The position numbers were made by a program, and so were the translations under genes. The notes under the pieces were generated by a model. That model was not told where the DNA came from and made no database searches. It was given only the letters and a program-made list of their open reading frames with translations. Shown one piece after another: positions 19,470 through 45,862 of a stretch of DNA of 51,741 bases (positions within the stretch are counted from its first letter, which is position 1; each line of letters begins with the position of its first letter). This stretch comes from an uncultured Bacilli bacterium (GTDB taxonomy: Bacteria; Bacillota_I; Bacilli_A; RF39; UBA660), in assembly GCA_904420615.1 (NCBI GenBank), contig CAJFVY010000018.1:1-51741 (forward strand). Direction: 5' to 3'.

Positions 19470-20672
19470 TTATCTTAAGTGATATGGATTTTCACTACTT
19501 CCATCTCCTGATTCTATCATAACTTGGCTACCCAACATAATTGTTGGCCTAATACCATAATAGTTAATGGCAGAATTAAGATTAACATATCCACCACCAC
19601 TGACATAATATACACCATATGTATTTTCAGTAGAAGCTGTCATTAACCACCAATTAGTAGAAACATTAGAACTCAAATAATTATAATTTTGACATACTCG
19701 ATCAGTAGTAGCATGACAGTTAAGATCACTTGAGGCATTTAGATAATCACTTACTGTTAGTAAACCAATCATTTGATTTGGCATAGTAGAAGCACATTCT
19801 ACTGTATTTGTATTATTAGTCTCTTGTTCACTTCTTTTACCCATACATAAATCATATGGTACTAGTTTTTCTTTATCATTATCACTTAAAAACTCCATAG
19901 ATCCTATTTGTCCTGTTTTATATATCTCTTGTAAATAATCATATATACGGCTGACATCAAAGCTATTAATACCAACATTGCTATTTGCTTCTGTATTGTA
20001 ACGATCATCCCAGGTATAAGTTAAATATTGATTACGATTAAATTCTGGTATTATTAATACTTCATGATCTGCTGTTACTTTAACAATCCTAAATAATTGA
20101 TTGTCTAATTGAACATAGTTATTAACATTTTCACCACGAAATACATATTCACCATTCATTTGGTATAAGCCATCACCAGTTGCAACAGTATCCTGATCTA
20201 TAACTGCTTGATATAATTCCTTAGTAACATAGTTAGTTCCGCATTCCAAATACGGAGTATAGCGATACTCACCATTCACTAATTCTACAACTACCGTTCC
20301 TTCACATTCATCGTCTTTACGTAATTTGGATAAGGGGTCCATAAAACCATTATCTGCTAAAGTATCTGCTGATACCTCGGCTGAATTTCCTTCTTCATCT
20401 GGAAGAAAGGATTCATTTTCTTCATAATACTTTATAGCGGCATTTTTCATTCTATTTTCTATTTCTTGATAAGATAAATTACTACCACCAATAGCTCTTA
20501 CAAGAAAAACAATCAAAAATATTACAATCAAAAGCACTGCTAAAGCAGCAATCATAAATAGCATTTTCTTTCTTAATTGATCTTGATTGCTATTAGTATG
20601 CTTTGTTGGAATTTGTTGTTCTTCTGTCTGATTTTCAGATAGTGCTTTTTTCCCTTTATTCATAAAATTCAT
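19470..20672 (-). CDS. N-terminally anchored surface protein, paralogue of ORF 42436-44289
   Basis: 400 aa with a single TM (MLFMIAALAVLLIVIFLIVFLV). Shares an N-module (YYEENESFLPDEEG...YLECG) and a domain (NNYVQLDNQLFRIVKV...ENPY) with the 617-aa protein. Confidence 0.6.
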   Translation of the reverse strand: MNFMNKGKKALSENQTEEQQIPTKHTNSNQDQLRKKMLFMIAALAVLLIVIFLIVFLVRAIGGSNLSYQEIENRMKNAAIKYYEENESFLPDEEGNSAEVSADTLADNGFMDPLSKLRKDDECEGTVVVELVNGEYRYTPYLECGTNYVTKELYQAVIDQDTVATGDGLYQMNGEYVFRGENVNNYVQLDNQLFRIVKVTADHEVLIIPEFNRNQYLTYTWDDRYNTEANSNVGINSFDVSRIYDYLQEIYKTGQIGSMEFLSDNDKEKLVPYDLCMGKRSEQETNNTNTVECASTMPNQMIGLLTVSDYLNASSDLNCHATTDRVCQNYNYLSSNVSTNWWLMTASTENTYGVYYVSGGGYVNLNSAINYYGIRPTIMLGSQVMIESGDGSSENPYHLR

Positions 20673-20688
20673 TTTTACCCCTCACCTT

Positions 20689-22845
20689 CTATTCGTCAAA
20701 GAAATCATCGAAAAAGTCATCGTCATCCCCATCATCATCAAGATCAAGTACTACTTCTTTTTTCTTATTATCTTTATTATCCATATCCACTACTTTAGGA
20801 ATATCACTCTTAATACTTGTAACCTCTTTATCAAGAACTGTATTTTGAGGTTTCAACTTAGCTTCTTCTTCTTTATTACGTTTTTCTTCTTCTTCTAATT
20901 CTGCTATCTTAGCATCAATTTTTCTTACTAAAGCATCAACATCAAAAGCAGGTGCTTCTTCTTTTGGTGCTTGTTTCATCTTCGAATTATCTAATAATGG
21001 ATTCATAGTTGGAGTTTTTCCTTCGTTCATATTACGCTCTAATAAATCTGGTGGAATAAATGTTGGAGGTGTTGGAAAGCCAAAGGAACCTCCTTGATTA
21101 TTAGGAACAGGATTACTATTCATCATATCGATTAATTTCTTTTTCTTTTGCTCTTTTACAAAGGCTTTTACATCAAAAGTATGTACAGGTTGTTTTTCAC
21201 GTTCTATGAAGGTTGCTTTAGGATATTTCTTTCCCCAATCAATTTTCCAATCAGGTGTTCTATGCGTTTTAAAAGGTTGTTTTCGTAATCGTAAAATGAT
21301 ACAATCATTTTCTTTCATTCTTTGTAAGTCAGATACCGTAACTAGAGGTGTAGATGCTGTTTTATCATCTTTTTTACTTTTTACTTCTCCACACATCTTA
21401 GAGATTTCTTCAAGAGCTGCTAATTCTGCAGAGATCAAATAAATAATATTACCACAGTTACCACGAATTGTTTCTGCATCTTCTTTACCATATACTTGAT
21501 TTAATTGAGCATAGTTCTGAATAATCATCGTAAAACGAATATGTCTACTTCTTGCTGCTGTGATCATCGTTGTCATATCCTTTAATTTAGGCATGTTAGC
21601 AAACTCATCTAGCAAAAAATTAGTACGAACTGGTAGTTCTCCACCATTTTCTTGAGCTACATCAATTAAAGTTTCATAACATTGTTTCAAAAGAATTGTA
21701 ACCAATGGATGATAGGTTGTCTTTTCGTCTTGAATAACAATAAATAAAGCTGTTTTACGTCTTCCAATATCACCTAATTCTAAATCGCTATGACTTAACA
21801 TTTCAGATAAATTTTCACGTGATGCAAATAATTTTATTTTTTGTCTAAAGACAGATAAAATAGAACCTTTTGTTTCAGATGGTGCGGATATTGTAGCAGA
21901 TGCATTAATAGCGGCAGGACTAGATGGATCTTTCTCTTGAAAATATTCCTTAATATAAGTACTACCACCAAATTTTTCTTCTCCTACCGTAGTCATCAAA
22001 CTAATACTATTAATATTAATTTCTTCTTCTTTGGCATCTTCAAATAAGCCTAATGCCACACCTGAAAAATAGTCAGCTGATGTTTTTTCCCAGAAAGGAT
22101 CTGCATTAGTATTGGAAGCATCATATAAAATATTAAGAGCTAAGTCATCTAAAAGCTCAATTGCTTTATCTTGATTACCATTCTTATACATCTTATATGG
22201 AATAGCAAGTGGATTCCAACCACTACCACTCTGTGGATTACGAAAGTTTAATACTTGTACATCATATCCTTTTTCTCTTAACATGGAAGCAGTCTTTTCA
22301 TAAATTTCACCTTTCGGATCGGTAACAATCATAGATTCTCCAGCTTTAGCTAATAACTTAACTGTTGGCAAAATAACTGTCTGAGTCTTACCGGAACCAG
22401 TAGCACCAATTACAATTGTATGATATTCACCTGAATCCACCCATGCCTCATTTTCATTTAAAATTAAAGGAACTCCTCCAGCACTAGCTGTGGCATCTTT
22501 AATAGGAACCATCTTTAATTCTTCTTTTATTTCCTTATCTTTAGCCCATCTAGAATATCCCTTGTCTTTCTTTTCAGTTGAAAATCCTATTCCCTTTTCC
22601 ATCTCAAAAAAGTAAGACTTAACACTAATCAACAAACCTACTATTGCAACTAAATAAACTAGAATTGTAATCCATATAAATTGTGGTGTAAAGGCAGGAA
22701 AAGGATTAAACCCACTAAAGGTACCTTCAGTTGCGAAACTATGTAAATTCACAATAGCAAGAGCTACAATGTATAAAAGAAAAATAGCAAATACAACAAA
22801 AGTAATAATATCATCTTTGTCTGCTCTAAATTTTAATTTCATCAA
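20689..22845 (-). CDS. virD4: VirD4/TraG-family type IV coupling protein
   Basis: 718 aa. Two N-terminal TM helices, Walker A VIGATGSGKTQ, TDPKGE motif, Walker B FLLDEFANMP. Long Lys/Glu-rich linker ending in DDDGDDDDFFDDFFDE. Confidence 0.85.
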   Translation of the reverse strand: MMKLKFRADKDDIITFVVFAIFLLYIVALAIVNLHSFATEGTFSGFNPFPAFTPQFIWITILVYLVAIVGLLISVKSYFFEMEKGIGFSTEKKDKGYSRWAKDKEIKEELKMVPIKDATASAGGVPLILNENEAWVDSGEYHTIVIGATGSGKTQTVILPTVKLLAKAGESMIVTDPKGEIYEKTASMLREKGYDVQVLNFRNPQSGSGWNPLAIPYKMYKNGNQDKAIELLDDLALNILYDASNTNADPFWEKTSADYFSGVALGLFEDAKEEEININSISLMTTVGEEKFGGSTYIKEYFQEKDPSSPAAINASATISAPSETKGSILSVFRQKIKLFASRENLSEMLSHSDLELGDIGRRKTALFIVIQDEKTTYHPLVTILLKQCYETLIDVAQENGGELPVRTNFLLDEFANMPKLKDMTTMITAARSRHIRFTMIIQNYAQLNQVYGKEDAETIRGNCGNIIYLISAELAALEEISKMCGEVKSKKDDKTASTPLVTVSDLQRMKENDCIILRLRKQPFKTHRTPDWKIDWGKKYPKATFIEREKQPVHTFDVKAFVKEQKKKKLIDMMNSNPVPNNQGGSFGFPTPPTFIPPDLLERNMNEGKTPTMNPLLDNSKMKQAPKEEAPAFDVDALVRKIDAKIAELEEEEKRNKEEEAKLKPQNTVLDKEVTSIKSDIPKVVDMDNKDNKKKEVVLDLDDDGDDDDFFDDFFDE

Positions 22846-22848
22846 ACA

Positions 22849-23373
22849 TCACCCCGTAATATTAGAATCATATGATACACTATAAACCATAATCCCTTTT
22901 TCTAAAAAGGTATAATGTATTCCATTCGCAGTTATTATATCATACTGAACAAGGTTTTGTGAACTATTTCTTTCAGTAGTATATCCAGTTATTTGTAATG
23001 CATTGGGAGTAGCTAAAATCATAGAAGCAAAAGATGAAAAATCGTCTAAAGTAATATCATTTTCTTCTACAAAAGAAGAATCTAATAATTGATAAGCTTC
23101 ATTTATATCTTCAAACATCATATTATAAAAATCATTTAAGTAAATACTTGCCATTTGTTGATCTGATAATTCAACATTAACATACTCATTAGAATCGTAC
23201 TCTCTATTTACTATATAATCACTAGCATTGCCATTTGTTAAATCAATTAAATATTGTGAATAATATGGATCATCAGAAAGAGAATCACGATTTACTACAA
23301 AATAAACAATACCAATAATGATTAATCCAATTACTATAAATAGAAATAAAACTTTAATTTGTTGCTTGTTCAT
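22849..23373 (-). CDS. Membrane-anchored protein, possible VirB8-like (NTF2-like) component
   Basis: 174 aa with one N-terminal TM and a ~140-aa ectodomain. Paralogous segment YQLLDSSFVEENDITLDDF versus LTILTPQYVEDNSITEQNI in the neighbouring gene. The assignment rests on position and size only. Confidence 0.35.
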   Translation of the reverse strand: MNKQQIKVLFLFIVIGLIIIGIVYFVVNRDSLSDDPYYSQYLIDLTNGNASDYIVNREYDSNEYVNVELSDQQMASIYLNDFYNMMFEDINEAYQLLDSSFVEENDITLDDFSSFASMILATPNALQITGYTTERNSSQNLVQYDIITANGIHYTFLEKGIMVYSVSYDSNITG

Positions 23374-23881
23374 TTTTTACCTCCTCAAAAATTTCAGAAG
23401 TAGAAGGATTAATAGAAAATGTAAGCATCTGTTCATTCAAAGTAACAGAATAGTAAGTATCTCTTTTATTAGTGTTCATAGAATTAAAGCTATCCTCAGT
23501 AATCCATCCATAAATTTCATAGCGATAAATATCATCGCCAAGATCTATCTGATACATCTCACGTGCTGAAAAAGTATAATTGTTAATGGTTGGTAATTGA
23601 TCTAAGAATGTATAAATATTTTGTTCTGTAATAGAATTATCTTCTACATATTGTGGAGTCAAAATAGTTAGCAATTCCTCCGTACTTTCACTTTGTAAAT
23701 AAGTAATATATTTATTTACACAACCAGATACTGTAAAAAAACGAGAAGCATCTGTTACAATAGTTGGTCTTGATATAGATGTTCCACTATTTTCTATAAT
23801 CTGCAAAAGAATAAAAAGTAAAGCCGCTACAATAACACCAAATGCTATTAATATTTTTTTAGATATATAAACTCCATTCAT
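23354..23881 (-). CDS. Membrane-anchored protein, possible VirB8-like (NTF2-like) component
   Basis: 175 aa with the same architecture as ORF 22849-23373. The two overlap by 20 nt. Confidence 0.35.
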   Translation of the reverse strand: MNGVYISKKILIAFGVIVAALLFILLQIIENSGTSISRPTIVTDASRFFTVSGCVNKYITYLQSESTEELLTILTPQYVEDNSITEQNIYTFLDQLPTINNYTFSAREMYQIDLGDDIYRYEIYGWITEDSFNSMNTNKRDTYYSVTLNEQMLTFSINPSTSEIFEEVKNEQATN

Positions 23882-23892: not shown

Positions 23893-26151
23893 CTATAGAC
23901 CAAAAATATTATAACGAAACTCTCGTTTTTGATTTAATTGCCAAGCCGTATAATCATTTTGTTCACAGACAGTTGTTCTTGATGATTCCGGACAAGAAGA
24001 AGCTGTACAAACGGACTTATCATCACAATATCCTGCTCCATACACAAGATTTAGTGCATAACATCCGCCACTTCCACTGCTTCCTGGAAATTCACGATAA
24101 GTTCCAACCCAAGAATAAACAGATTGCCAGCCTTCTAGTGTACCGGGCAAACCATGTCCAGCTGGATCACATCCAGCTGCTTCTCTTTCGTTATAGCGAT
24201 TCGTAATAGCTGCATCGTGAGAACCACCGGGTAAATAATCTTGCAAGGTTGCCGCAAAGCCTCTAATTCCTTCTTCAAAAGAACTATATTGTGCACCACT
24301 GCTACAACCTTCTCCATTTGCAATACCAATTCCCCAGTAATTATATCCACAAGTGCTACGCCAACCTTGTTCTGTTCCTGCTGTTACGACTACTAATTCG
24401 GGATTGACATTATTATCTAGTGAAATATCGTAAATTTCTCCAGCATGAGCAGAAAAGTTATTACAAAATGCGGTATTTCCATTAGTATTACAGTAATTTT
24501 CCATCTTAGCTATAAACTCTGCTCTTGAAAGCGATGTTGAAGTAAGAGACCAACCACCACTTGACATTGGTCTTGGATTATCGGGATCTATATAATTTAA
24601 TGGATCAACAGCTGCAGTACCAAGATCTGCTCCTTCTCTGATTTCAAAATGTAAGTGTGTACCCGTTGATTGACCACTACTTCCCATTTTTGCAATAACC
24701 TGACCTTGCTTTACTGTATCTCCTGCTTTTACTAATATAGTTCCTTGGTGCAAATGGGCATAAACAGTATAATTACCATCACTATGTTGGATCGTAATAT
24801 AATTCCCAAATCCACTTCCACAATTTACATTGCCAAAAGATTGACAGGTATCCAATCCTAAAGCTGATGGTTTTACAACAACACCATCTTTAGCAGCAAT
24901 AACATTTACAACACCTGCTTCCGTAGTACCACCTAACAAATCAACTCCACGATGAGCTTCTGAATTTCCATTTACCGGATTTACTCTATTGGGTTGAAAC
25001 TGACTGCTAATAGCCACAGACGCTGGATCACCACTAGCAAACTCCACACCATTTTCTACTGTTGTCTCGCTACTACCTACTGGCCACCAATATAAATTGT
25101 TTTCAATGGAATTATAATTTTTATTTTGATCTTCCTCTGATGATATTGCCTCATTATAATTTTCAATATAATTTAAAGTTTCTTCAGAAATAAATGAATA
25201 ATATTCATCGCTTTGATCAGGAATTTTACCTTTATAATATTCTATTAAAGAATTAACAACATCATCATGATTAGAATCCGTAACCTGAAAATCATATTGC
25301 TCTAACAAATTTGCTAACTCTTGTATTTCTTCCTTAGTCATATCCTCATAACTAAACTCTTGATCATAACTATAGCGCATCACTACAACAGCTGCAGATA
25401 ACTGAGCTATGGATAATCTAGCATTGGAATTTGTATAAGCTGAAGCCACCTCATCTATTCTATCAATATAAGCTTGTTCTTCTTCTGAAGAAGCCTCGTA
25501 ATTTTCATCTGTAACTGCAGCAATAGGTGACAAGGCACTTGCATTGCTCCCTCCTACAGCAGTAACAGCAATTACTACAACTAATAGCAATAAAAGAAAG
25601 GGTCCTCCAAAAATAGGTAGCATTTTTATAGGATCAAAACTGCCTTTGCCAAATAATTTAAATTCTTGCTCTTGACCACTATCACTAGAACCATCCGTTT
25701 TTTTAGTACTACTCTTTCCTTTTTTCTTAGTAGCTTCCTCAGTAGCTTTTTCTTGGGCTACATTTTCAGCAGCCTTTTTACCAGCACTGGTAGCAGCATT
25801 TTGTATATTTTGCGTTAAATTAGCTCCTGATTTTGATTTAATCGAACCAAGTTTATTAGCCAAATCTGTGGCCCCAGAATCTTTTAATTTTTTAGTAACT
25901 TTACCAACACCAGGTACTTTATTTACCACTTTAGAAGCTGCACCTAAAGCTTTATCAACACCGGGTACTTTAGTAGCTACATCGACTACCTTACCTCCAA
26001 CACCGGGAGCTAAATAATCACCAGCAATTTTAGCTCCTGCTTTTAATGCATCTTTTGTTGCTTCTTTTTCTTCTGCTTTTTTTTGCTTACGATGAGCCTT
26101 ATATGTTGTATCAGGATCTAATTCTTGCTTGTTCTTATCCTTGTTAGCCAT
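23893..26151 (-). CDS. Membrane-anchored cell-wall hydrolase: M23 endopeptidase plus C-terminal glucosaminidase/lysozyme-like domain (VirB1 analogue)
   Basis: 752 aa. Lys-rich N-terminus with KVPGV(D/G)K repeats, and a TM (FGGPFLLLLLVVVIAVTAV). M23 motifs HRGVDL and GSSGQSTGTHLHFEI. C-terminal NPELVVVTAGTEQGW...NYWGIG. Confidence 0.75.
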   Translation of the reverse strand: MANKDKNKQELDPDTTYKAHRKQKKAEEKEATKDALKAGAKIAGDYLAPGVGGKVVDVATKVPGVDKALGAASKVVNKVPGVGKVTKKLKDSGATDLANKLGSIKSKSGANLTQNIQNAATSAGKKAAENVAQEKATEEATKKKGKSSTKKTDGSSDSGQEQEFKLFGKGSFDPIKMLPIFGGPFLLLLLVVVIAVTAVGGSNASALSPIAAVTDENYEASSEEEQAYIDRIDEVASAYTNSNARLSIAQLSAAVVVMRYSYDQEFSYEDMTKEEIQELANLLEQYDFQVTDSNHDDVVNSLIEYYKGKIPDQSDEYYSFISEETLNYIENYNEAISSEEDQNKNYNSIENNLYWWPVGSSETTVENGVEFASGDPASVAISSQFQPNRVNPVNGNSEAHRGVDLLGGTTEAGVVNVIAAKDGVVVKPSALGLDTCQSFGNVNCGSGFGNYITIQHSDGNYTVYAHLHQGTILVKAGDTVKQGQVIAKMGSSGQSTGTHLHFEIREGADLGTAAVDPLNYIDPDNPRPMSSGGWSLTSTSLSRAEFIAKMENYCNTNGNTAFCNNFSAHAGEIYDISLDNNVNPELVVVTAGTEQGWRSTCGYNYWGIGIANGEGCSSGAQYSSFEEGIRGFAATLQDYLPGGSHDAAITNRYNEREAAGCDPAGHGLPGTLEGWQSVYSWVGTYREFPGSSGSGGCYALNLVYGAGYCDDKSVCTASSCPESSRTTVCEQNDYTAWQLNQKREFRYNIFGL

Positions 26152-26185: not shown

Positions 26186-27976
26186 CTAGAATCCTCCTCC
26201 ACTACCAAATGATTCTAATTCTTCTTTTGTTACAATAACATTTATACGCATTCTACGAGAGCCACAAACAAACAAAGCCTCTCCTTGAGAATATCGTTTA
26301 ATACTTTCTTTTTCATTATCATTTAAATCAATTAACAATGATAAATCTTCCACTGCTTGTTTTCTTAAACCCATTACCAAATAATAAGAGGAATTATCGA
26401 AAATAGCTTTACCTTGAGTAATTACATCTGGGCCTGAGAAATCACTAGGCTGTTGTGTAATAATAATGGTTCCAGTATTATATTTACGAGCACGTCTTTG
26501 TACTTGTGCTAAGAAGTCAGCTCCTTGTTGATTATTGCCACTAAGTAATACATGTGCTTCATCAACCATTAAAACAGTATTTACATCCACATCTAAACAT
26601 AATCCCCAAGCATATTTAAGTACATTAAAGAATAAAGCATTACGAATATTAGTATCTGAATTCATAAACTCTTTAATATTAAATACAATAAAATCACTTT
26701 GTGGTGCAATGGTTGTTTTACCATCAAAATAGAACTTTAATTCTCTTGTTAATGGTCTAATCTTAAGTTCCAAGCGTTGCATAATATCTTTTTCACGTGT
26801 TTGCTCCGTCATAGACATTAATCTTCCTTTTACTGTAGCATAAACATCTGTAAAAGTCGGATAGTCATTACTAGTAAACTTAGAAAAATCAGTATTAAAA
26901 TCAATACCAAAACGTTTATAAGTATCTTGTAATACTTCACTAAATAGTGTTAAAACATCTTCCTCAATAGATGGATCATAATACTTCATAAAGGCTCTTA
27001 ACGATTGAATCGTTCTAGTTAAAATAGTATAACCAAGCCCTTGTTTGATTTCTTCATCATCAGCATCAATTACAACTTCAAGTGGATTAATCATTCCGAA
27101 TTCTCCACCCTTACCAATATCGATAACATCTCCACCAAAAGAGCGTGTCATTTCCTCTAATTCATTTTCAGGGTCAATTGCCACAATTTGACAACCATTT
27201 CGAATATGACTTCTTAAAATTAGTTTAGCTGCAGTTGATTTACCACTTCCTGAAGTACCAAGAATAATCATATTAGCATTATTTCTATTATTTTCTTTAC
27301 GAATTTGATATAAAAATTGATTAAATAGAATAACTCCACCAGAAAAGTCTACCCCAAGTAAAACAGAAAGTCCTGGATCTTTAATACTATCAAAGATAAA
27401 AGGATACATAGCTGCAATAGTTGGAGATGGAATTGGAGTACCAACTCTTTGCTCAATATCTTGACTAGGAAAGATTGGTAAAATACTTTTTAGTACTTTT
27501 TCCTGCTCAAAACGTAATGAAACAGCCCTAAGTTCCATTGCATCTAAATAGTTTTTAACATTTACTTTTCTTAACTCTAAATCTTCTCTAGTATCTGCAG
27601 TTATCATAATATGCATTTGAAAGTCAAAAATCTTTGATTGACTACTAGCAAGCATAGATACAAAATACTCCAAACTTTCAGCATCTTGTCTAATACGTTC
27701 CTTTGCTGTTTGATCTTTCTCATCACGATATTTTTCTCTTAAATCAGCAACTTGTCTATTAATCATCTTAGACATAGATGAAAAAGGAACTGGAATATGC
27801 TTGATAACAATTTTAATACCACTATTAGAAGTTAGGGAAGCTAAATAACCTGGAGCAATATATCTAGGATAAGAGATCACTGTCAAAATAGTTGCATACT
27901 TATCACTAATAAAGAAATCACTGGCATTAAAGCTAAGTCCCTTAGGAGCTAATTGACTTTTTATACTAATACTCAT
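26186..27976 (-). CDS. virB4: VirB4-family ATPase, C-terminal (ATPase) part
   Basis: 596 aa. Walker A MIILGTSGSGKSTAAK, Walker B VLMVDEAHVLL, IIITQQPSDF motif. Its start overlaps the preceding stop as ATGA. Confidence 0.85.
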   Translation of the reverse strand: MSISIKSQLAPKGLSFNASDFFISDKYATILTVISYPRYIAPGYLASLTSNSGIKIVIKHIPVPFSSMSKMINRQVADLREKYRDEKDQTAKERIRQDAESLEYFVSMLASSQSKIFDFQMHIMITADTREDLELRKVNVKNYLDAMELRAVSLRFEQEKVLKSILPIFPSQDIEQRVGTPIPSPTIAAMYPFIFDSIKDPGLSVLLGVDFSGGVILFNQFLYQIRKENNRNNANMIILGTSGSGKSTAAKLILRSHIRNGCQIVAIDPENELEEMTRSFGGDVIDIGKGGEFGMINPLEVVIDADDEEIKQGLGYTILTRTIQSLRAFMKYYDPSIEEDVLTLFSEVLQDTYKRFGIDFNTDFSKFTSNDYPTFTDVYATVKGRLMSMTEQTREKDIMQRLELKIRPLTRELKFYFDGKTTIAPQSDFIVFNIKEFMNSDTNIRNALFFNVLKYAWGLCLDVDVNTVLMVDEAHVLLSGNNQQGADFLAQVQRRARKYNTGTIIITQQPSDFSGPDVITQGKAIFDNSSYYLVMGLRKQAVEDLSLLIDLNDNEKESIKRYSQGEALFVCGSRRMRINVIVTKEELESFGSGGGF

Positions 27977-32179: not shown

Positions 32180-32304
32180 AATTCAACTCCACCTTAATCA
32201 AATCAAGTATATCAAAAATAATAGAAAATAGCAATCTTAAATATTCGATACGAAACTGAACTCATACTAAATTCATTTTGATTTTCATATTATTTTTAAA
32301 TAAC

Positions 32305-38792: not shown

Positions 38793-41657
38793 TTACTCTC
38801 CTCCTCTTCTACTAGCACTCTCGCTTTGATAAGTATCGTAACAAAGTTGGCTATCTTGATAAATTGCAGTATCACACTGAGTAGCACTAGATTGATTATT
38901 ACATCCGATTAATCCACGTTTTACCAAGAAGTCTGTTCCATATCTTTCTGACATTTCATCAATAAATGAACTCTTATATACTGAAATACCAGGTGTTTTA
39001 TTAATTCCAGCTGAAGATTGTGATTTATCATCAGTTGGATTTAAATAACTTCCTTGTTCTGAATTATAATTTCGAATAGCATTAATAGTAGTTGGAGTTA
39101 AAGTAAATTCATAATCTAGATATTTTTCTTCATTTGCTTCATCATATATACTATTACCAGCTTTTTGAATATTTTCTCGTAATGCTACTGGTTGTACTAA
39201 ATAATCTTGATTAGACAAGTTAGTAGCACCACAACTCCAGTTAAAGTATGGATCTCTAGTACTTGATCCTTCTTCTGATGCAGGGAATAAATTAGTTAAC
39301 GAAATAGATCTAAAGCCATAAGCATCTGTAATATCCCATTCACAATCTTCCTCATCTGGATCACATTCATAATCACACTCTTCAACAGAAGGATCACATA
39401 TAGGATTATCATTATCGCAAATTTCAACTTTAGGATCACATTCTACCTTATCATCATCATCTGGTAAAGCCAAAGCATAGAAACATGTTAGTGGAATATT
39501 CCAGTTATAGTAACCAAAGTTTTCAATATTAACATGAATATTTTGATTTTCATTTACTTCTTGGTTAATAATAGACATTTCTTCACTCGTTAAACCATAA
39601 TTTTCTTTACTATGATCATAATATCTCTTCCATCTATACCAGTTAACATTGATTGGCGTAGAATCCATTCTAGTACAGAATTTACGACCAAGTTCTGTAT
39701 AAATGCTAGTATCTTCAGGTTCTTTATCTGTTATGATATGAGTTTTATTATTTAAATAATGTTTAGGGAAAGTTAATACATCACGATAAGTATATGGCGG
39801 ATATTCTTCCTCATAACAAATACCGTTTGTATCAATAACAATATCATCTCCTACAACATCAGTTCCACCTTTATTTTGTGTAGCATCATATATTACTTCA
39901 TAATCTTCATCACTTTCAATTGGATTATCAACAGTAATGTCAAAAGATGCAGTTCCTTCTGTTTGATTATTACTACATAATGATGCGGCTGCATCACACT
40001 TAGCTGCTACATTTTGTGTTTCTTGTTGTTGAGATTGTGATATCAAATTAGCTGCTTCTTGAGTTGGTACAGAATTCGCTGGACATTGTCCAATCAACTG
40101 ACATGAATCAGTACAATTGGCATCTACACCGTTTCTTGTTGTTTGCATTAAGAAACCATTTTGTTCACGATAAGCAAAAGTAGCACTACTACTAGCTAAA
40201 TTAGCATAACCAAGCCAAAGTTTAATTGTCTCAGCAGTTTGTTCTACACTATTTAAATACCATGGAGCTACTGAAATATAATTTTGTCCTCTATTGGCAT
40301 TCCAATATGTACGTCCTTGACTATCCTTTGCATATGAACCAAAATAAGATAAACCATTATCAGCAATCATTTGACTATATCTTTGATATAACTCTCTTGC
40401 TAGTGTCATCAAATCTTCTCCATCACGATAACGGACACCATACTCACTAAGCCATAAGTTTCTATTTTCACTTTCTGTATCAGAAGCATCTACTTTTCTA
40501 ATCGTATTTAAATCATCATTACTATTTTTAGTTTGATAAGTTAAAATAGTAGCATTATTACTATTAATAGATAATTCATCAGTTTCTTCATTCTCATATA
40601 CTTTAGTATAACATTTATTAATACATGCTTGCGTATATTCGCCGCCATCACATTCAGTAATACAATTATCAAAATCATCATCTGGTCCACCATTATGATA
40701 ATTGGTTCCTGTTTTTGTTGTACATTGTGGTACTAAAGTACATACTTCTGGAGGTGAAGGAATGTTTCCAGTATATTTACCAGAACAATCCATTGTTGTT
40801 CTAATTTCAGCTACATATTCAAAACACATTCCAATTTGAGTCTCTACTGGAGGATCCCAAATCACTTCTACTGTTTCAACACACTCTACTTCACAATCAT
40901 TAATGCCGTCATTCGTAACATCTATACTACTAGTTCCTGTATGATAATATTTTCTAGTACTATCACGTTCCGAAAAAGTATCACATTGAGCGCCAGTCAA
41001 ATCAGGATTTGTTGGATCAGATATTTCCTTGGCATCTGTTGGTATTACTACAGGATCACTTACATTTGATAAATTATGAAGATTAACTGCAGTCTCAATA
41101 TACTGATTAATTCTATCTATACTAAATGCATCTAATCTAGCTTGTGTCACTTGTTCTTCAAAACAAATAGATACTGCCGCTGCCATATTAGCATCATTTT
41201 GATAAGTATTACGATAATTTATGCAGGATTGAGAGTTGTAATAAGGATTAGAAACCAAACTTTCTACTGCAAAGCGATATGTCTTTGTACATGCTGTATC
41301 ACCAACATATGTCAAAATCAATTCGTTAGTGGTTGATACCATATCATTTGGATTTAAATTAATAATTAAATTACCATTTGATACACTAATAGAACTTTGA
41401 GCTATTCCATTTAAAGTAACTGTATAATCAGCTGCATTAAATTGATCACTATCATATTGAGAATTAATTGTAACTGTTGATCCTTCAACATTAATTGTAT
41501 TAGGCAATATTTCTATTTCACGGCATTGTTTTAATCCTTCTTCATTATCCTCACCAGATACAGACACCGTAGCAGTAACAAGAATAAAACCTACTAACAA
41601 AAACATAAGTGTAGATATTAGCCATGCTCCCTTTTTATGCTTCTTGATTATTGTCAT
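38793..41657 (-). CDS. Large N-terminally anchored, Cys-rich extracellular protein
   Basis: 954 aa with a TM after KKHKKG. Many Cys throughout. Contains the acidic Cys cluster ECDPKVEICDNDNPICDPSVEECDYECDPDEEDCEW. Confidence 0.6.
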   Translation of the reverse strand: MTIIKKHKKGAWLISTLMFLLVGFILVTATVSVSGEDNEEGLKQCREIEILPNTINVEGSTVTINSQYDSDQFNAADYTVTLNGIAQSSISVSNGNLIINLNPNDMVSTTNELILTYVGDTACTKTYRFAVESLVSNPYYNSQSCINYRNTYQNDANMAAAVSICFEEQVTQARLDAFSIDRINQYIETAVNLHNLSNVSDPVVIPTDAKEISDPTNPDLTGAQCDTFSERDSTRKYYHTGTSSIDVTNDGINDCEVECVETVEVIWDPPVETQIGMCFEYVAEIRTTMDCSGKYTGNIPSPPEVCTLVPQCTTKTGTNYHNGGPDDDFDNCITECDGGEYTQACINKCYTKVYENEETDELSINSNNATILTYQTKNSNDDLNTIRKVDASDTESENRNLWLSEYGVRYRDGEDLMTLARELYQRYSQMIADNGLSYFGSYAKDSQGRTYWNANRGQNYISVAPWYLNSVEQTAETIKLWLGYANLASSSATFAYREQNGFLMQTTRNGVDANCTDSCQLIGQCPANSVPTQEAANLISQSQQQETQNVAAKCDAAASLCSNNQTEGTASFDITVDNPIESDEDYEVIYDATQNKGGTDVVGDDIVIDTNGICYEEEYPPYTYRDVLTFPKHYLNNKTHIITDKEPEDTSIYTELGRKFCTRMDSTPINVNWYRWKRYYDHSKENYGLTSEEMSIINQEVNENQNIHVNIENFGYYNWNIPLTCFYALALPDDDDKVECDPKVEICDNDNPICDPSVEECDYECDPDEEDCEWDITDAYGFRSISLTNLFPASEEGSSTRDPYFNWSCGATNLSNQDYLVQPVALRENIQKAGNSIYDEANEEKYLDYEFTLTPTTINAIRNYNSEQGSYLNPTDDKSQSSAGINKTPGISVYKSSFIDEMSERYGTDFLVKRGLIGCNNQSSATQCDTAIYQDSQLCYDTYQSESASRRGGE

Positions 41658-42423
41658 TTGTTACACCTTCTTCCATTCTTTCTCTTATCGGTTCATAATT
41701 ATCATTTGTCTTAACATCAACTAATGTTTGTCTTTCTCCATCTCGTAATTTTCTAGCATCTACTCTAAAGGAATAACTACTTCCTGATCCATAGAATCTT
41801 GTACATGTATATAGAGTTAATAATAAATCATCTTTTGTAACATCAACATCCATATCATACATACTTTCTTCTTTTGACTTTTTTATATATTCTTCTAATT
41901 CCTCATCTGTAAATGTATCATAGAAAGAAGCACTTTGATCATCTTCTAGTAAAGCAACAGCATATATCCTATAAAGTGCAGTTTCACCAGTAACATCAGT
42001 AAACTCAATATACTGATTTTCATTTGTAAATTCAGGATAGATAAAAGCCATCAATTGTTCAAAACGAGTCATACTATCATCATCGATAATTGGATTTCGT
42101 GAAACATTACGAATATTATGCGAAATATAACTTGGATGATTACTGTTTTCATCAGGGAAAGCATTTGTCCAAGCAAATTGATATTCCATATTAGTAACAT
42201 CCTGAGCTGTAGTCCCCTGAATTAGTGCCATGTCAATATTGGTTCCTTCCACTCTTATCCAACCAACAACTTCGTCTCCATATTGTTTTGCCTGTTCTAT
42301 TTTGTCTTTTTCATCCATAATTTTAAAATCACTGGTTCGAACACTTAAAAGCCACCACAGCACTAATGTTATGGCAACTATTGCAATAATTAATCCAATA
42401 ATTAATAAACTTCGTTTTCTCAT
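41635..42423 (-). CDS. srtB: Class B sortase-like transpeptidase
   Basis: 262 aa with an N-terminal TM. VVGWIRVEGTNIDMALIQG, a His region SYISHNIR, the active-site motif LLLTLYTCT and a downstream Arg (SFRVDARK). It is collinear with S. aureus SrtB as I recall that sequence. Confidence 0.7.
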   Translation of the reverse strand: MRKRSLLIIGLIIAIVAITLVLWWLLSVRTSDFKIMDEKDKIEQAKQYGDEVVGWIRVEGTNIDMALIQGTTAQDVTNMEYQFAWTNAFPDENSNHPSYISHNIRNVSRNPIIDDDSMTRFEQLMAFIYPEFTNENQYIEFTDVTGETALYRIYAVALLEDDQSASFYDTFTDEELEEYIKKSKEESMYDMDVDVTKDDLLLTLYTCTRFYGSGSSYSFRVDARKLRDGERQTLVDVKTNDNYEPIRERMEEGVTNDNNQEA

Positions 42424-42435: not shown

Positions 42436-44289
42436 CTATTTTGAAATAGTATATGGATTAGCTTCTGTTCCATCCCCACCTGTTAAATATGCATCTTTAT
42501 CTATATATATTTTTAATTTTACACTTGCTCCTTCATAATCATGTAATCCAGTGTAAGGAATTGTTCCAATTGGAAAGACAATTGCTTTTGTATTAGCTTG
42601 TGTTGAAGAATCTATTAACCAATAACCAGGTCCAGAATTATCTGTTTTAGCACTGAAAATATCAAATGTAGATGGAATAGAAATCCTTGCTTTATATTTT
42701 TTGGTTGTTTTTTTGCCTTGATAAGTGATATTGCCTTCATATATTGGAACAGTTATTTCTTTATTTACTAATAGTTTAGTATCAATATATTCAATTCCTG
42801 TATTTACAATTTGATAACCAATGTTACCTTCTTCCTCAGGATTATAAACTTTATCATTATCACCATTATCATATCTAATTTGATAAGTTACTCCTTGATC
42901 ATCAGATAAAGTTCCAGTCATAATAAGTTCTACTTGATCATGGTCAATACCAGCAATCCTAAACGTATATCCAGAATAGTTTACATATTCACCAATATGA
43001 CGTGTATTTAATAAAGCATTACGTCTACCACTATTTTCCTCTATTATTATATAAGGATCTTCTGCAGTACCTGTACCAGATAACACTTTAGTGTCAGCAT
43101 CAATTCGTAAGGCTGGTCGAATATTGAACAAAGTATCCCCACTCATAGCTTCTATTTTTTCTGGATAAGCTGCAGGTGGAAATAAAGTCCAAGGATTATT
43201 GCTCTCATTAAAGTTAGCCAACCAAAACATATTGCTAGCATCTAAATAACTAAGGTTGTCTTGTAAACTTAAATTATAATCTTGTAAAGATAAAATTCCT
43301 ATTTGTCTTTCATCTGAATATCTATTACACTCAGTAGTATTATAATTGGCAGCTGTCACTTGATCATCACACCATTTACTATTAACAATTATTTTCTTAA
43401 AATCATCATCAAGTAAAGAATAAAAATAATCATTTAACCAGTCATCAAGACTACTATCAATAAAACGTCCATCTTCACTACTATAATCCACATTACTAAC
43501 TGGATCAGCACTAACTAATGTAATAGTATCATCTTCACTTACTCCAACAATTCTAAATAACATATGACTAAACATAATATAGTTATTAGGACCCGCTCCT
43601 TGATAATAACCATTTTCCGTATTAGCTTCCACAATACTAGATAAGCTTTCACTAACATTAATTGTTCTTTCTACTACTGTTGTATTATTCAATGAATCAC
43701 TAACAGTATAAGTAACTGTATACGTACCAACTTTAGATGTATCTACTTTTCCTTCAATAGTAACAGATGCTATATCCATTTCTCCGTCTACATTATCAAT
43801 AACACTTTTAACCCCTGGTTCTTCATAAGTATCTCCACGGCTAAGATCCATTTCTTTATCGCCATTTAATGTTATTTTTGGTCCTTCATGATCTACACTA
43901 GATTCATAATTTCCACATTTTAAATAAGTATAATACTCATTTTCACCATTTCGTTTTACAACTTTCACATTAGAGTTTTTATAATCACAGCGCTTATTAC
44001 TATAAACTTGTGTCAATTCTTCTACATAATCATGTTGTGCTAACGTTTCTAAGCTAACTGTTATAACTCTTCCTTCTTCTCTTGGTAAATAGCTAGAGTT
44101 AATTTCAAAGTATCTCTTTCCACCTTTATCAAGTTTTTCTTCTTGGCCTTTGAAATATATCTGTGGATAAATTATAGCAAACCAAACAATAAGAATAATT
44201 AGAATAATCGCTAAGATAATTACAGCAATCCTCAATAGTTTTTTCATCTTAGGCGTAAGTACAAATTTTTTATTTTTTTTCTTTTCCAT
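42436..44289 (-). CDS. N-terminally anchored surface protein with Ig-like domain and two copies of the domain found in ORF 19470-20672
   Basis: 617 aa with a TM. Ig-like segment GPKITLNGDKEMDL...GTYTVTYTVSDSLNNTTVVERTINV. Two units (NNYIMFSHMLFRIVGV...EDPY and YVNYSGYTFRIAGI...ANPY). Confidence 0.6.
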   Translation of the reverse strand: MEKKKNKKFVLTPKMKKLLRIAVIILAIILIILIVWFAIIYPQIYFKGQEEKLDKGGKRYFEINSSYLPREEGRVITVSLETLAQHDYVEELTQVYSNKRCDYKNSNVKVVKRNGENEYYTYLKCGNYESSVDHEGPKITLNGDKEMDLSRGDTYEEPGVKSVIDNVDGEMDIASVTIEGKVDTSKVGTYTVTYTVSDSLNNTTVVERTINVSESLSSIVEANTENGYYQGAGPNNYIMFSHMLFRIVGVSEDDTITLVSADPVSNVDYSSEDGRFIDSSLDDWLNDYFYSLLDDDFKKIIVNSKWCDDQVTAANYNTTECNRYSDERQIGILSLQDYNLSLQDNLSYLDASNMFWLANFNESNNPWTLFPPAAYPEKIEAMSGDTLFNIRPALRIDADTKVLSGTGTAEDPYIIIEENSGRRNALLNTRHIGEYVNYSGYTFRIAGIDHDQVELIMTGTLSDDQGVTYQIRYDNGDNDKVYNPEEEGNIGYQIVNTGIEYIDTKLLVNKEITVPIYEGNITYQGKKTTKKYKARISIPSTFDIFSAKTDNSGPGYWLIDSSTQANTKAIVFPIGTIPYTGLHDYEGASVKLKIYIDKDAYLTGGDGTEANPYTISK

Positions 44290-44302
44290 ATGAACACCTT
44301 TC

Positions 44303-45862
44303 CTATTTCAATTCAAACACATACTGTTTATTACGGAATGTATAAACTAGCTGCAATGTACCATTAATATCGATATCATTAGGCAAATTCAAATATAACC
44401 GATTACCTGTATAATTCGTCTTTACAAGACTAGTACAATTAATGGACTCGACCTCTCCGCTATTATTACTATAATTAATTTTAGCATATTTATTAGAAAA
44501 GTCAACAAAACTATTGCCATCAAAACTATTACTAGTAAAATATATCTCTAGAATCTTACCATTAGGATTCGTAAGTGTTTGTGATATAACTCCACAACTA
44601 GATGTAGTAGTACACCTATAAGCATTATAAGTAGTTTGATCTTTTACTGTTGCTTCCATAATTCTTATATCTTCACCAGTTGGAAATTCTATACTTTCTT
44701 TCAAAGAAATAGTCTTATCTGTTTCTATTTCTCTTAAATCCTCTATATTTAACTTAGTCTTTTTTATCAAAATCCTATCAGTAACATCTTGATAATACAA
44801 AACATATTTACTAACATCATCATCTTTATTTACTCTAAACACTAACATAAAATTAATGGTTTCGCCCGGATCCATTTCTTCATCGCTATTAAAGGATGTG
44901 CCTAAATCACTAAAATAACGATTATACTGCAAGGTATATTTATACTCCTGATTAAGATTCATTAAGCGAAATCTATCAATATTAATCGTTCTACTCCAGT
45001 CAGTATTATTAGTTACTTGTAAATTAACAATCACAAAAGCTTTTTTACTATCTTCAACAATATAATTACCATTAGTCGTTCTTTCTGTTATATAACTGTT
45101 TGTTACTTTTATAGTGTAATTATTGGCAACAAAGCTACTTCCTTCAGAATATGTTTTATGTAATACACCAAAATAGTAATAAGTATAACCGCCAATTCCA
45201 CCTATAATTATCATTGTGATAATTCCAAATACTAATCTATGTTCTCTATAAACATATTTTACATTACGCCAAAACCTTTTCCAAGTTCTTACAAATACAT
45301 CTTTATCTATTTCAACATGTACTTCAAACTCTTCTCTATCTTCTTCGTTTATTTCTAAATATTCTTTATCATTTTTAAAGCCAAACTTCTTTAAGTCTAA
45401 TCCTAAACTACGTATTCCTAATAAAATAAACACTAAAAATTGTAATAGATAAGCAATTAATAATAAGTCCCTCGCAGCCATTATGGCTGTAATGGTTGAA
45501 TATTCATCATAAGTATTAAAGTAATTACGAACATAAACAAATAAACCAAACAAAAATAAATATTCTGCTAAGACTGGTAAATATATTTTCCAAGGCTTTT
45601 TTTTATGTCTTAAAAGTACCATTAAAGTTATAATAATAGCCATAATTATTATTAGTACTAAAAATAAACCAGGTCCAATATAATTTCCAATTGGCTCTAA
45701 GAAGTCATTATAACTATTAGTAGCAATAAAATCTTTAACAAAAGTTCTAACAACTGTTGTTTTATAAAAAACAAAAATACATAGTAATAATAACCCTATA
45801 TGAATCTTTTGAAAGTTTTTAATGAGAAATGCGTAAGGTTTACGAAATATCACTTCATTCAC
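44303..45862 (-). CDS. Polytopic membrane protein with C-terminal beta-sandwich-like ectodomain (first gene of operon)
   Basis: 519 aa with about 5 TM helices in the first 230 aa. The later segment AFVIVNLQVTNNTDWSRTINIDRFRL...PGETINFMLVF is DUF4352-like. The tracked start is GTG and the exact start is uncertain; the GTG at 45853 has better RBS spacing. Confidence 0.5.
   Translation of the reverse strand: MNEVIFRKPYAFLIKNFQKIHIGLLLLCIFVFYKTTVVRTFVKDFIATNSYNDFLEPIGNYIGPGLFLVLIIIMAIIITLMVLLRHKKKPWKIYLPVLAEYLFLFGLFVYVRNYFNTYDEYSTITAIMAARDLLLIAYLLQFLVFILLGIRSLGLDLKKFGFKNDKEYLEINEEDREEFEVHVEIDKDVFVRTWKRFWRNVKYVYREHRLVFGIITMIIIGGIGGYTYYYFGVLHKTYSEGSSFVANNYTIKVTNSYITERTTNGNYIVEDSKKAFVIVNLQVTNNTDWSRTINIDRFRLMNLNQEYKYTLQYNRYFSDLGTSFNSDEEMDPGETINFMLVFRVNKDDDVSKYVLYYQDVTDRILIKKTKLNIEDLREIETDKTISLKESIEFPTGEDIRIMEATVKDQTTYNAYRCTTTSSCGVISQTLTNPNGKILEIYFTSNSFDGNSFVDFSNKYAKINYSNNSGEVESINCTSLVKTNYTGNRLYLNLPNDIDINGTLQLVYTFRNKQYVFELK

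Follow-up and report, generated by a model that had tools for sequence, protein, structure and literature searches.

The closest described relatives of the system analysed here lie on plasmids of the Bacillus cereus group and on a plasmid of Priestia koreensis, where a Gram-positive type IV secretion system (T4SS) is encoded together with a second module that resembles the Tad pilus. In the gene table of pAW63, pXO2 and pBT9727, which show a like arrangement, the ATPase of this second module is named a VirB11 homologue and is followed by proteins of 278 and 250 amino acids (aa) and by small proteins; VirB4 pieces of 105, 223 and 645 aa lie elsewhere in the region (PMC1196294). For the Listeria island LGI1 and for pXO1, virB4, virB6, virB11 and virD4 have been described alongside cpa/tad genes (PMC2834635), and the hybrids of type IV pilus (T4P) and T4SS that a 2025 T4SS review recognises are those of IncI plasmids and PAPI-1 only (PMC12857230). 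Here we describe a cluster of 23 open reading frames (ORFs), g01 to g23, at positions 19470-45862 of a 51.7-kb stretch of DNA (the window: positions 1-51,741 of contig CAJFVY010000018.1, assembly GCA_904420615.1) from an uncultured Bacilli bacterium of the RF39 lineage. The cluster is probably a domesticated, host-retained descendant of the type of conjugation apparatus found on pXO2/pAW63, pBMB67 and pHT73, acting as a contact-dependent translocation machine. The pairing of the two modules was already known from the Bacillus and Priestia plasmids and from LGI1; what is new here is its chromosomal setting, the lack of a relaxase at the locus and its synteny in at least 80 species of uncultured gut Bacilli.

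Organisation of the cluster and its plasmid relatives

The cluster runs from 45862 down to 19470 (about 26 kb), and all its genes, promoters and hairpins, as well as the two terminators that bound it, are on the minus strand. At 16 of its 22 junctions, neighbouring genes overlap or lie no more than 21 nucleotides (nt) apart, the remaining six being gaps of 34, 45, 47, 83, 89 and 178 nt, in agreement with an earlier, sequence-only reading of the locus, which had described 23 consecutive minus-strand genes with gaps mostly under 25 nt. The hairpins by which that reading delimited the cluster are both real: the intrinsic terminator of typA at the upstream boundary (45943-45977) has a 14-bp stem and a U-run, with a folding free energy (dG) of -18.2 kcal/mol and a z-score of -5.9, and the cluster's own terminator (19440-19470) a 13-bp stem and a U-run, with a dG of -11.7 kcal/mol and a z-score of -4.1. 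A weak candidate promoter of g01, TTTTCA-17-TATACT, was picked up by a consensus scan at 45879-45907 (9 of 12 matches). Core genes lie on both sides, as had been noted, namely typA, tsf, rpsB, rplT, rpmI and infC on one flank and genes for a P-type Ca-ATPase, spoVAC/AD/AE, scpA/B, a hydrogenase and DNA repair on the other; the G+C content is about 0.27-0.35 in nearly all 1-kb bins of the cluster (0.40 in a single bin) and alike in the flanks. The claim that the locus has no relaxase, integrase, replication or partition gene was borne out by family profile scans, in which none of the ORFs of the window fell into any of these families. No att-like flanking repeats were found; the repeats that span the cluster are imperfect and at chance level, so that insertion between att repeats was rejected. 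With relaxase and integrase absent from the window and housekeeping genes on either side, the evidence supports the view that this is not a standard integrative and conjugative element (ICE) or plasmid insert.

The sequence-only reading had also recognised a Tad-like type IV filament module joined to a Gram-positive VirB4/VirB6/VirD4 module, which our analysis supports. Its further statements that the two machineries are normally separate and that the locus fits no described class found no support, as the comparison with plasmids makes clear. The best plasmid relatives of the VirB4 ATPase g18 are plasmids of Bacillus thuringiensis. On pBMB67, one run of genes encodes a MobP3 relaxase, a CD1115-type VirD4, a hypothetical protein, TrbL, PrgI, a 227-aa protein and a 630-aa DUF87 protein. 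A second run, a few kb off, encodes an SLH protein, an 851-aa protein, a weak DUF5411 protein, a SAF protein, an AAA_31 protein and a T2SS/T4P/T4SS ATPase, followed by 305-aa, 244-aa, 89-aa and DUF4320 proteins. Proteins of both modules of the window, the split VirB4 included, are homologous to those of pBMB67, with E-values from 1e-6 to 1e-85: in the T4SS module g22 matches VirD4 (33% identity, E = 1e-66), g18 the DUF87 protein, which corresponds to the C-terminal part of VirB4 (E = 1e-85), and g17 the 227-aa protein, which corresponds to its N-terminal part (E = 1e-15); in the Tad-like module g06 matches the SAF protein (32% identity, E = 1e-27), g07 the ATPase (E = 2e-32), and g08 and g09 the platform-like proteins of 305 aa (E = 8e-12) and 244 aa (E = 1e-6), respectively. 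The Priestia koreensis plasmid encodes a relaxase and a type IV coupling protein and then SLH, Ig-like, DUF5411, SAF, hypothetical, CpaF/VirB11, T2SSF, hypothetical and DUF4320 proteins.

Thus the plasmids of the Bacillus cereus group (pBMB67, pAW63/pXO2/pBT9727 and pHT73) and the Priestia plasmid carry both modules together, as the window does. The first module consists in both settings of a large surface protein, DUF5411 and SAF/CpaB proteins (with an AAA_31 protein next on pBMB67), a CpaF/VirB11-family ATPase, two platform-like proteins, a small pilin-like protein and a DUF4320 protein; the second of a CD1115-type VirD4, TrbL/VirB6, PrgI, a VirB4 N-terminal protein of about 225 aa and a VirB4 ATPase of about 630 aa. 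Unlike the window, the plasmids have a MobP3 or Replic_Relax relaxase gene next to virD4 as well as replication and partition genes, the order of their modules is reversed, and no T4SS_pilin homologue was detected on them; pAW63 has an NlpC/P60 hydrolase where the window has an M23 hydrolase, and the identity between plasmid and window proteins is only 23-33%. Because the plasmid relatives carry the same split, the division of VirB4 is native to this T4SS class, and, judged by gene content, the Tad-like module appears to be a regular companion of the class.

More distant systems share some of these features. LGI1, compared by its published description, resembles the window as a Gram-positive locus where cpa/tad pilus genes and genes for an adhesin and a peptidoglycan hydrolase accompany virB4, virB6, virB11 and virD4, and is unlike it in being a horizontally acquired island with a skewed G+C content and a primase gene next to virD4, present in some strains only (PMC2834635). 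The best NCBIfam matches of the window's VirB4 (355 bits) and VirB6-like proteins are to families of the Mycoplasma ICE (Mbov_0397 for VirB4; MMCAP2_0566/Mbov_0396 for the membrane proteins), at scores under the family cut-offs of 590 and 90 bits. The Mycoplasma VirB4 model is a single 894-residue protein, whereas the window has three genes in its place (g16, g17 and g18), and the Mycoplasma ICE is a mobile element, unlike the cluster; we know of no Tad-like module in it. R64 (IncI) and PAPI-1 resemble the window in that a type IV filament, which assists transfer or is required for it, is encoded with a VirB4/VirD4-dependent transfer system (PMC12857230), and differ from it as Gram-negative, relaxase-bearing mobile elements with a type IVb pilus.

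Conservation, mobility genes and inheritance

One genome per species was scanned for relatives of the window's VirB4; at least 554 places with a relative were found, and the best 80 species-level genomes were analysed. In these, VirB4 is 77-90% identical to that of the window and 594-597 aa long; in the clusters closest to g18, the 120 matches listed are all 596 aa in length and 88-100% identical. The order from g06 to g23 is kept in nearly all of the 80 genomes whose contig is long enough, the locus that we label L080 being an exception (see below). A 1.546-Mb contig, ERZ28754907 contig_4467, shows the complete order from g01 to g19, including the sortase gene and a gene for a 933-aa protein, with a thioredoxin-like gene and not typA on its upstream side, and a circular chromosome of 1,517,539 bp, OZ006970.1, is among the carriers of the cluster. 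The downstream flank in other species consists of DedA/VTT and RmuC genes, of isochorismatase and NAPRTase genes or of typA, all of which are housekeeping genes. In four loci (L077, L080, L081 and L084) typA is found downstream of virD4 and not, as in the window, upstream of g01; cluster and typA have remained neighbours there despite the change in their relative order.

The carriers are labelled 'uncultured Bacilli', 'Tenericutes', 'Mycoplasma sp. CAG:877', 'Candidatus Onthousia faecipullorum' or 'Erysipelotrichaceae'; a few bins labelled Muribaculaceae, Acidaminococcus or Clostridiales are presumably mislabelled. According to their isolate names, the metagenome-assembled genomes (MAGs) come from human, mouse, rabbit, goat, sheep, yak, water deer, cattle rumen and chicken. 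The carriers may belong to the GTDB order RFN20 or to an order of Bacilli close to it. In the literature searched, no paper was found that links RF39, RFN20 or Onthousia with a T4SS.

Neither the window nor 1.61 Mb of related loci gave a tblastn match to relaxases of the MobP3 and Replic_Relax types, to a serine recombinase or to a Toprim primase; in the relatives on mobile genetic elements, the relaxase adjoins VirD4. When proteins are clustered at 50% identity, the VirB4 of this clade stands isolated, its next relatives being 43%, 41% and at most 35% identical. The two nearest outgroup proteins (41-43% identity) are on contigs of only 2 kb. Where the context of an outgroup gene could be read, Tad-like genes are missing, and the locus has ArdC, SSB or Toprim genes and either a serine recombinase or, next to VirD4, a MobL relaxase; by their gene content, these carriers of outgroup VirB4 proteins are evidently ordinary ICEs.

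These comparisons bear on whether the machine still conjugates DNA, with a relaxase that is encoded elsewhere or goes unrecognised in the cluster, and mediates Hfr-like or distributive transfer of chromosomal DNA within the species. Such an activity would fit the nature of all recognisable relatives, which are conjugative or mobilisable elements, the membership of VirD4 in the conjugative CD1115 family (above cut-off), the replacement of g13-g15 alleles, which shows recombination between lineages, and the location of RmuC just downstream of the cluster in many species. However, relaxase, primase, SSB and anti-restriction genes, which are adjacent in the mobile relatives, are missing from the window and from the 1.6 Mb of related loci, and conjugation systems are normally patchy in their distribution rather than fixed in a clade. 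We therefore consider chromosomal conjugation unlikely as the present role of the cluster.

The history of the two halves can be followed in 34 genomes, for which the distance matrices of the concatenated Tad-like and T4SS genes are strongly correlated (r = 0.92, Mantel p = 0.001); the halves have therefore been inherited together. TypA is 81-82% identical where VirB4 is 78-79% identical. Within the species, the ratio of nonsynonymous to synonymous substitution rates (dN/dS) is 0.005 for g18, 0.04 for g17 and 0.09 for g22, and between species it ranges from 0.08 to 0.15 for the ATPases and platform proteins; the values for VirB4 lie between 0.005 and 0.08. Synteny, low dN/dS and co-inheritance together indicate that the cluster is functional, constrained and vertically inherited, and not an island.

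A decaying and non-functional remnant of an integrated conjugative element, whose mobility genes have been lost, would likewise have no relaxase or integrase and could show a VirB4 in three pieces. One MAG of the same species (L002; GCA_944332125.1, CALVJK010000052.1) even has two fragments in place of each of the genes g07, virD4 and that for the Ca-ATPase. As the Ca-ATPase gene is broken too, assembly or sequencing error is the most likely cause in this MAG. The split of VirB4, for its part, is conserved in every species and in functional plasmid relatives, all ATPase motifs are intact, and dN/dS values of 0.005 to 0.15 contradict decay, which we hold to be scarcely credible. Pseudogenisation of VirB4 itself was rejected, since the split is conserved across species and is under purifying selection.

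The T4SS module

The second half of the cluster opens with g13 (32358-32687, the likely start being the ATG at 32678), a VirB2-like T4SS pilin candidate: a hairpin of two helices whose termini vary and which has a conserved Cys close to either end. It is followed by g14 (30992-32179), in which a signal peptide and a hypervariable ectodomain precede a C-terminal VirB2-like hairpin that matches g13. In a joint Pfam scan of 59 proteins, 33 of them g13/g14 orthologues, T4SS_pilin (PF18895) was matched by 20 proteins, with a best E-value of 3.4e-5; the output came without a per-protein list, and the matches presumably belong to the g13/g14 orthologues. The window copy of g13 itself falls under the PF18895 reporting threshold, and g13 had no match in the plasmid collection. 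VirB2-like pilins have been called unique to Patescibacteria among monoderms in the 2025 review (PMC12857230), and the Patescibacteria study describes the Gram-positive T4SS classes as having no virB2 homologues (PMC12102498); the PF18895 pilins, as assigned here, contradict the current statement that VirB2 homologues are missing from the Gram-positive classes.

The channel components are more readily assigned. The product of g15 (28838-30946) is a VirB6/TrbL-like channel protein (TrbL_4, 39.6 bits with a cut-off of 27) that also matches the transmembrane families of the Mycoplasma ICE (E = 1e-5). VirB4 is split three ways, into g16, g17 and g18, which cover residues 3-96, 100-276 and 294-893 of the Mycoplasma VirB3-VirB4 fusion model: g16 (28502-28816) is its VirB3/PrgI-like piece and matches weakly, g17 (27973-28521) is the N-terminal domain of VirB4 as a gene of its own (E = 4e-14), and g18 (26186-27976) encodes the 596-aa ATPase domain, with 355 bits to NF045975 and with AAA_10 and P-loop_TraG above cut-offs. 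PrgI and TcpE had two matches each in the 59-protein scan, presumably orthologues of g16, and orthologues of g17 have a weak precomputed TraC-like match.

Downstream of VirB4 lies g19 (23893-26151), which encodes a membrane-anchored M23 peptidoglycan hydrolase (Peptidase_M23, 85 bits). The hydrolase at this position varies in length from 613 to 960 aa between species (loci L020 and L077 included), and its domain type can switch: in locus L089 a SpoIID-like domain replaces M23 (19854-20894). Next come g20 (23354-23881) and g21 (22849-23373), two small proteins with a single N-terminal transmembrane segment, neither of which had a family match in the profile scans; g20 is poorly conserved (30-40%). 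By their size and position they may correspond to VirB8. The module ends with g22 (20689-22845), a VirD4 coupling protein with a long acidic C-terminal tail, which scores 321 bits on NF045973 (CD1115 family; cut-off 250) and 209 bits on T4SS-DNA_transf (PF02534). The VirB6, VirB4, M23 and VirD4 assignments of the sequence-only reading thus stood on profiles, and those of VirB2 and of the VirB8-sized proteins are indirect.

The coupling protein is also an obstacle to seeing the cluster as a machine for DNA uptake (competence), in which the filament would capture DNA and the VirB4/VirB6 channel import it, in the manner of Helicobacter ComB or archaeal Ced/Ted. A filament combined with a VirB4 channel is the very logic of Ced/Ted and ComB, there are weak NCBIfam matches to CedB and CedD, and small genomes may depend on imported nucleotides or DNA. 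However, the matches to the Ced models are far under their cut-offs and a VirD4 coupling protein is present; to our knowledge, importers of the ComB type have none. We regard DNA uptake as a very improbable function.

Several of the T4SS genes differ sharply between otherwise near-identical strains. Where g16-g18 are 99-100% identical, identity is 73-85% for g13 and drops to 57% for g14, 72% for g15 and 86% for g19; the value of 57% for g14 was found between strains whose VirB4 is 100% identical. In the strain comparison, which includes locus L004, the variable genes have a dS of 0.6-0.9, against 0.1-0.17 in neighbouring genes, and dN is raised as well. As dS is raised together with dN, divergent alleles have been imported by recombination, and the segment from g13 to g15 (28838-30946 and 30992-32687) behaves in these alignments as a recombination hot spot for what appear to be the exposed parts of the T4SS. 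Differences in g13 between strains are confined to the two termini of the alignment. The termini of VirB2-type pilins face outward, and the same may hold by analogy for the variable termini of g13. Such variation would be in keeping with contact between these parts and a variable partner, phages or the immune system of the host.

The Tad-like module

The first of the filament genes, g06 (37483-38307), encodes a CpaB/RcpC (SAF) protein that is marginally above the RcpC cut-off (29.2 against 28.8 bits) and under that of TIGR03177 cpaB (E = 1e-9); a single-sequence search of solved structures gave no match. Next to it, g07 (36214-37464) encodes a type IV filament ATPase (T2SSE, PF00437, 98 bits) with the Walker A motif GETGSGKT, which falls short of the NCBIfam equivalog cut-offs. 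Among solved structures it comes closest, in full-length matches, to FlaI (81 bits, residues 8-304) and CpaF (64 bits), and with VirB11 only the nucleotide-binding core aligns (residues 141-263); g07 therefore belongs to the TadA/CpaF/FlaI (Tad/archaeal) branch.

The platform proteins are recognised less directly. The family of g08 (35305-36198), a TadB-like protein, aligns in hhalign with the 'T2SS F family' protein of the Priestia plasmid (99.1% probability, E = 1e-18), and that protein itself scores 24.2 bits on Pfam T2SSF, whose cut-off is 25.2. The family of g09 (34523-35302), a TadC-like protein, is a paralogue of that of g08 by the same method (78%, E = 2e-5). Pfam T2SSF has no direct match for either protein. 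An AlphaFold model of g08, made with 30 homologues of 76-95% identity, has a pLDDT confidence score of 54 and was too poor for a fold search, and family profiles of g08, g09 and g12 gave no meaningful match to solved structures.

Two of the following genes encode pilin-like proteins with a common leader, M[KR]xAxG, ahead of a hydrophobic helix. The product of g10 (34287-34439) has 50 aa, the size of Flp, and begins with the conserved sequence MK(A/E)A(T/S)GELN; its leader, MK(A/E)A(T/S)GELN(L/M)TV, has no EY, so that it departs from the canonical G/XXXXEY motif, and the Flp_Fap family did not match it. The 153-aa product of g11 (33736-34197) is a minor-pilin-like protein (TadE/DUF4320-like) with a conserved Cys pair that aligns with the DUF4320 protein of pBMB67. 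The last gene, g12 (32735-33715), encodes a two-domain protein whose model (pLDDT 79.5) combines a flavodoxin-like N-terminal domain with a MinD/ParA/HypB-like (SIMIBI NTPase) domain bearing a degenerate Walker A motif, HAGSTT. Foldseek matches of the C-terminal domain are HypB, ParA, MinD and NifH, and the two-domain protein IcmF was found at E = 4e-8; TadZ itself is not among the top 50 Foldseek matches of g12. In the model, the layout of the domains resembles the architecture of TadZ, and we call the protein TadZ-like. A link to TadZ through the AAA_31 protein of pBMB67 was tried and dropped, as the hhalign probability was just 5.8%.

Of the Tad assignments in the sequence-only reading, CpaB and the TadA/CpaF ATPase are therefore backed by profiles, and TadB/TadC, the mini-pilin, TadE and TadZ are indirect; it had made the Tad identity depend on T2SSF, CpaF and CpaB profiles, and in our scans T2SSE and RcpC were passed and T2SSF matched neither g08 nor g09. 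The module shares with canonical Tad systems (Caulobacter Cpa and Bifidobacterium breve Tad) an ATPase of the TadA/CpaF/FlaI branch, a CpaB-like protein, two putative platform paralogues, a pilin of about 50 aa, larger minor pilins and a two-domain TadZ-like protein. It differs from them in its leader (M[KR]xAxG-ELN and not G/XXXXEY), in platform and TadZ-like proteins that fail the curated profiles, in being always linked to a T4SS and in having no prepilin peptidase in the locus. No ORF of the window matched the prepilin peptidases (Peptidase_A24; TadV/CpaA); the enzyme may be encoded elsewhere, and the sharing of prepilin peptidases between systems is known (PMC6668835). A sporulation channel like SpoIIIA/SpoIIQ was also considered and rejected, since the match to SpoIIIAA reaches only 14.5 bits and VirB4, VirB6 and VirD4 are foreign to that system.

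Surface proteins and sortase

The five promoter-proximal genes, g01-g05, had gone unmentioned in the sequence-only reading. On Pfam and its hydrophobic segments, g01 (44303-45862) encodes a multi-pass membrane protein with a DUF4352 ectodomain (37 bits); a 513-aa counterpart occupies the same position in locus L089, where g02 is kept as well. The latter (42436-44289) encodes an N-terminally anchored surface protein with Bact_surface_Ig-like (69.6 bits) and DUF6273 (30 bits) domains. A second anchored DUF6273 surface protein is encoded at the far end of the cluster by g23 (19470-20672; 27.3 bits), a copy of which type is found between g13 and g14 in some species.

The product of g03 (41635-42423) is a divergent sortase with a TLYTC motif; it is above the Pfam Sortase cut-off (27.8 against 26.6 bits) and, at 51.6 bits, under that of the class B sortase model. 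No C-terminal sorting signal was seen on any protein of the cluster. Two of the outgroup ICEs (L093 and L095), which have a split VirB4, carry a SpaA-type pilin gene next to their T4SS genes, and L093 also has a sortase gene; surface proteins linked to a sortase may thus be an accessory that recurs in the class, in line with g03.

The gene for the sortase overlaps by 23 nt with g04 (38793-41657), which encodes a Cys-rich surface protein of 954 aa; its basic leader ends in G, and a hydrophobic stretch comes next. A single-sequence search gave no Pfam or PDB match. Its place is held on pBMB67 by the 851-aa protein, on pAW63 by a surface protein of 1416 aa and on the Priestia plasmid by an Ig-like protein of 993 aa, and we regard g04 as a candidate large minor pilin or tip adhesin. 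Within it, three imperfect 29-nt direct repeats (39340-39443) encode an acidic, Cys-containing motif (for example CDP..EEC). The fifth gene, g05 (38329-38790), encodes a DUF5411 protein (170 bits) with a pilin-like N terminus; on the Priestia plasmid, too, a DUF5411 gene lies before that for SAF/CpaB, as does a weakly matching one on pBMB67.

Internal promoters

According to the sequence-only reading, all 23 genes share one transcript. This is doubtful and not established, for there are conserved promoter-like sites before g13 and g10 and a hairpin after g13. The site before the T4SS half, TTGACA-17-TATGAT (32706-32734), has 11 of 12 consensus matches and lies directly after the stop codon of g12. 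A site with at least 10 of 12 matches precedes g13 in 61 of 62 species, compared with 17/77 and 27/57 in control regions; among the 12 loci listed, it directly follows the g12 stop in nine and lies 20-30 nt further in the other three. Before g10 there is a promoter-like site with a TG element, GTTACA-17-TATAAT (34474-34502); in 46 of 56 species it has 10 or more matches out of 12, to be compared with the same control counts (17/77 and 27/57), and in two of the 12 listed loci in which its position was checked, the position did not fit. The hairpin after g13 (32310-32335), with a U-rich tract, a dG of -11 to -13 kcal/mol and a z-score of -4.1, is a candidate partial terminator or attenuator. Pilin genes commonly have their own promoter and a leaky terminator.

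The near-consensus promoter and the hairpin are also what might be expected of two independent neighbours, a Tad-like adhesive pilus with its adhesins (g01-g12) and a separate T4SS (g13-g23), each with promoters and functions of its own. The two modules do stand in a different relative order on the plasmids, and in L080 (DLAC01000059.1, UBA7057; 1-9370) the T4SS half directly follows a P-type ATPase gene, with no Tad-like half within 9 kb upstream of it. However, the pairing recurs in replicons as distant as the Bacillus and Priestia plasmids and LGI1, is kept in more than 60 species and is accompanied by the correlated divergence of the two halves (r = 0.92), and the nearest VirB4 relatives that do not have a Tad-like module belong to ordinary ICEs. 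We find it rather improbable that the two halves are independent machines.

Model and significance

In the domesticated conjugation apparatus that we envisage, contact with another cell would be made and held by the Tad-like filament together with the anchored surface proteins, both Ig-like/DUF6273 and Cys-rich, and the M23 hydrolase would open the wall of the producing cell itself. VirB4, VirB3, VirB6 and the small anchored proteins would build a membrane channel, from which g13 might be extruded as a short VirB2-like pilus tipped by g14, and VirD4 would feed a cytoplasmic substrate into the channel. Rickettsiales, too, have conserved chromosomal T4SSs, and the cluster resembles these as it does the T4SS of Patescibacteria. 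By analogy, we are inclined to think that the machine passes protein or nucleoprotein on contact to a partner cell, to the benefit of the bacterium that encodes it, and does not serve the self-transfer of a mobile element, because the system is fixed, strongly constrained and relaxase-less in a reduced genome, as in Patescibacteria (PMC12102498, PMC12857230).

Several points weigh against this interpretation. Given the absence of a prepilin peptidase from the locus and of a canonical Flp motif from its pilin-like proteins, the filament is a putative one, and the assignments of g08 and g09 to T2SSF and of g12 to TadZ are indirect. The searches for a relaxase covered the window and 1.61 Mb of loci, and one may be encoded elsewhere in the genome. 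Since L080 has no adjacent Tad-like half, the physical coupling of the two machines is something we infer, and the conserved internal promoter means that the halves could be expressed separately.

The T4SS of Patescibacteria, studied in Southlakia epibionticum, offers a parallel to the setting of the cluster, in that it is monoderm and MPF-FATA-like, chromosomal and mostly without a relaxase, is conserved across a lineage with reduced genomes and has VirB2-like pilins by PF18895 (PMC12102498, PMC12857230). It belongs to another phylum, has pilin arrays of 2 to 11 genes and operates alongside a T4P that is encoded separately, whereas in the window the Tad-like module is part of the same cluster; it is, moreover, essential by experiment, and the system described here is known from sequence alone. 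The two would correspond more closely still if the cluster encoded a core, possibly indispensable cell-to-cell organelle of these gut Bacilli with genomes of about 1.5 Mb, as a Firmicutes counterpart of the pair of T4SS and pilus without which Saccharibacteria cannot live on their bacterial hosts, a proposal that we put forward tentatively and consider unlikely. If it is true, there is a gut lineage that depends on cell contact, its members being epibionts, parasites or partners in obligate exchange, conjugative-like pili of the VirB2 type occur in walled Gram-positives outside Patescibacteria, and the lineage could be the source or the sister of the Patescibacteria system.

Apart from this proposal, the Tad-like module seems to be a regular yet unremarked partner of one Gram-positive T4SS class. 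In the literature that we found, its ATPase is just a 'VirB11 homologue', apart from a brief mention of cpa/tad genes for LGI1 (PMC2834635), and the pairing of Tad and T4SS is listed neither in secretion-system classifiers nor in the 2025 T4SS nomenclature review. The lineage would be another large one, besides Patescibacteria, in which a conjugation machine minus its DNA-processing genes is fixed on the chromosome, and we consider it a credible second case. It is common in the guts of humans, rodents, rabbits, ruminants and chickens, and there is no cultured member among the genomes retrieved. Should the machine mediate dependence on a partner, this would explain the resistance to culture, and the variable cassette of pilin, adhesin and VirB6 would then be the determinant of specificity and a handle for co-culture.

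Other features of the window

In the flank with typA, two ribosomal proteins carry C-terminal extensions. S2 (48797-49753, minus strand; 318 aa) has an extra Rho_N domain at residues 284-318 (E = 1.5e-9), and L20 (49842-50453, minus strand; 203 aa) an extra SAP domain at residues 169-202 (E = 6e-9) as well as a match to Rho_N (E = 8e-5). In the opposite flank, a minus-strand gene at 7497-9050 encodes a 517-aa protein with several Myb-like DNA-binding repeats, here in a bacterial genome, and is overlapped by a gene at 6847-7527 for a small sigma-70 region 4/helix-turn-helix protein. The stretch from 9000 to 12800 has a low G+C content (0.23-0.24) and a reversed GC skew and may be a small island; it contains two plus-strand ORFs without a family (9132-10118 and 11917-12723) and a YafQ/RelB toxin-antitoxin pair (10607-11258), and a tRNA-Leu(caa) gene (12923-13011) adjoins it.

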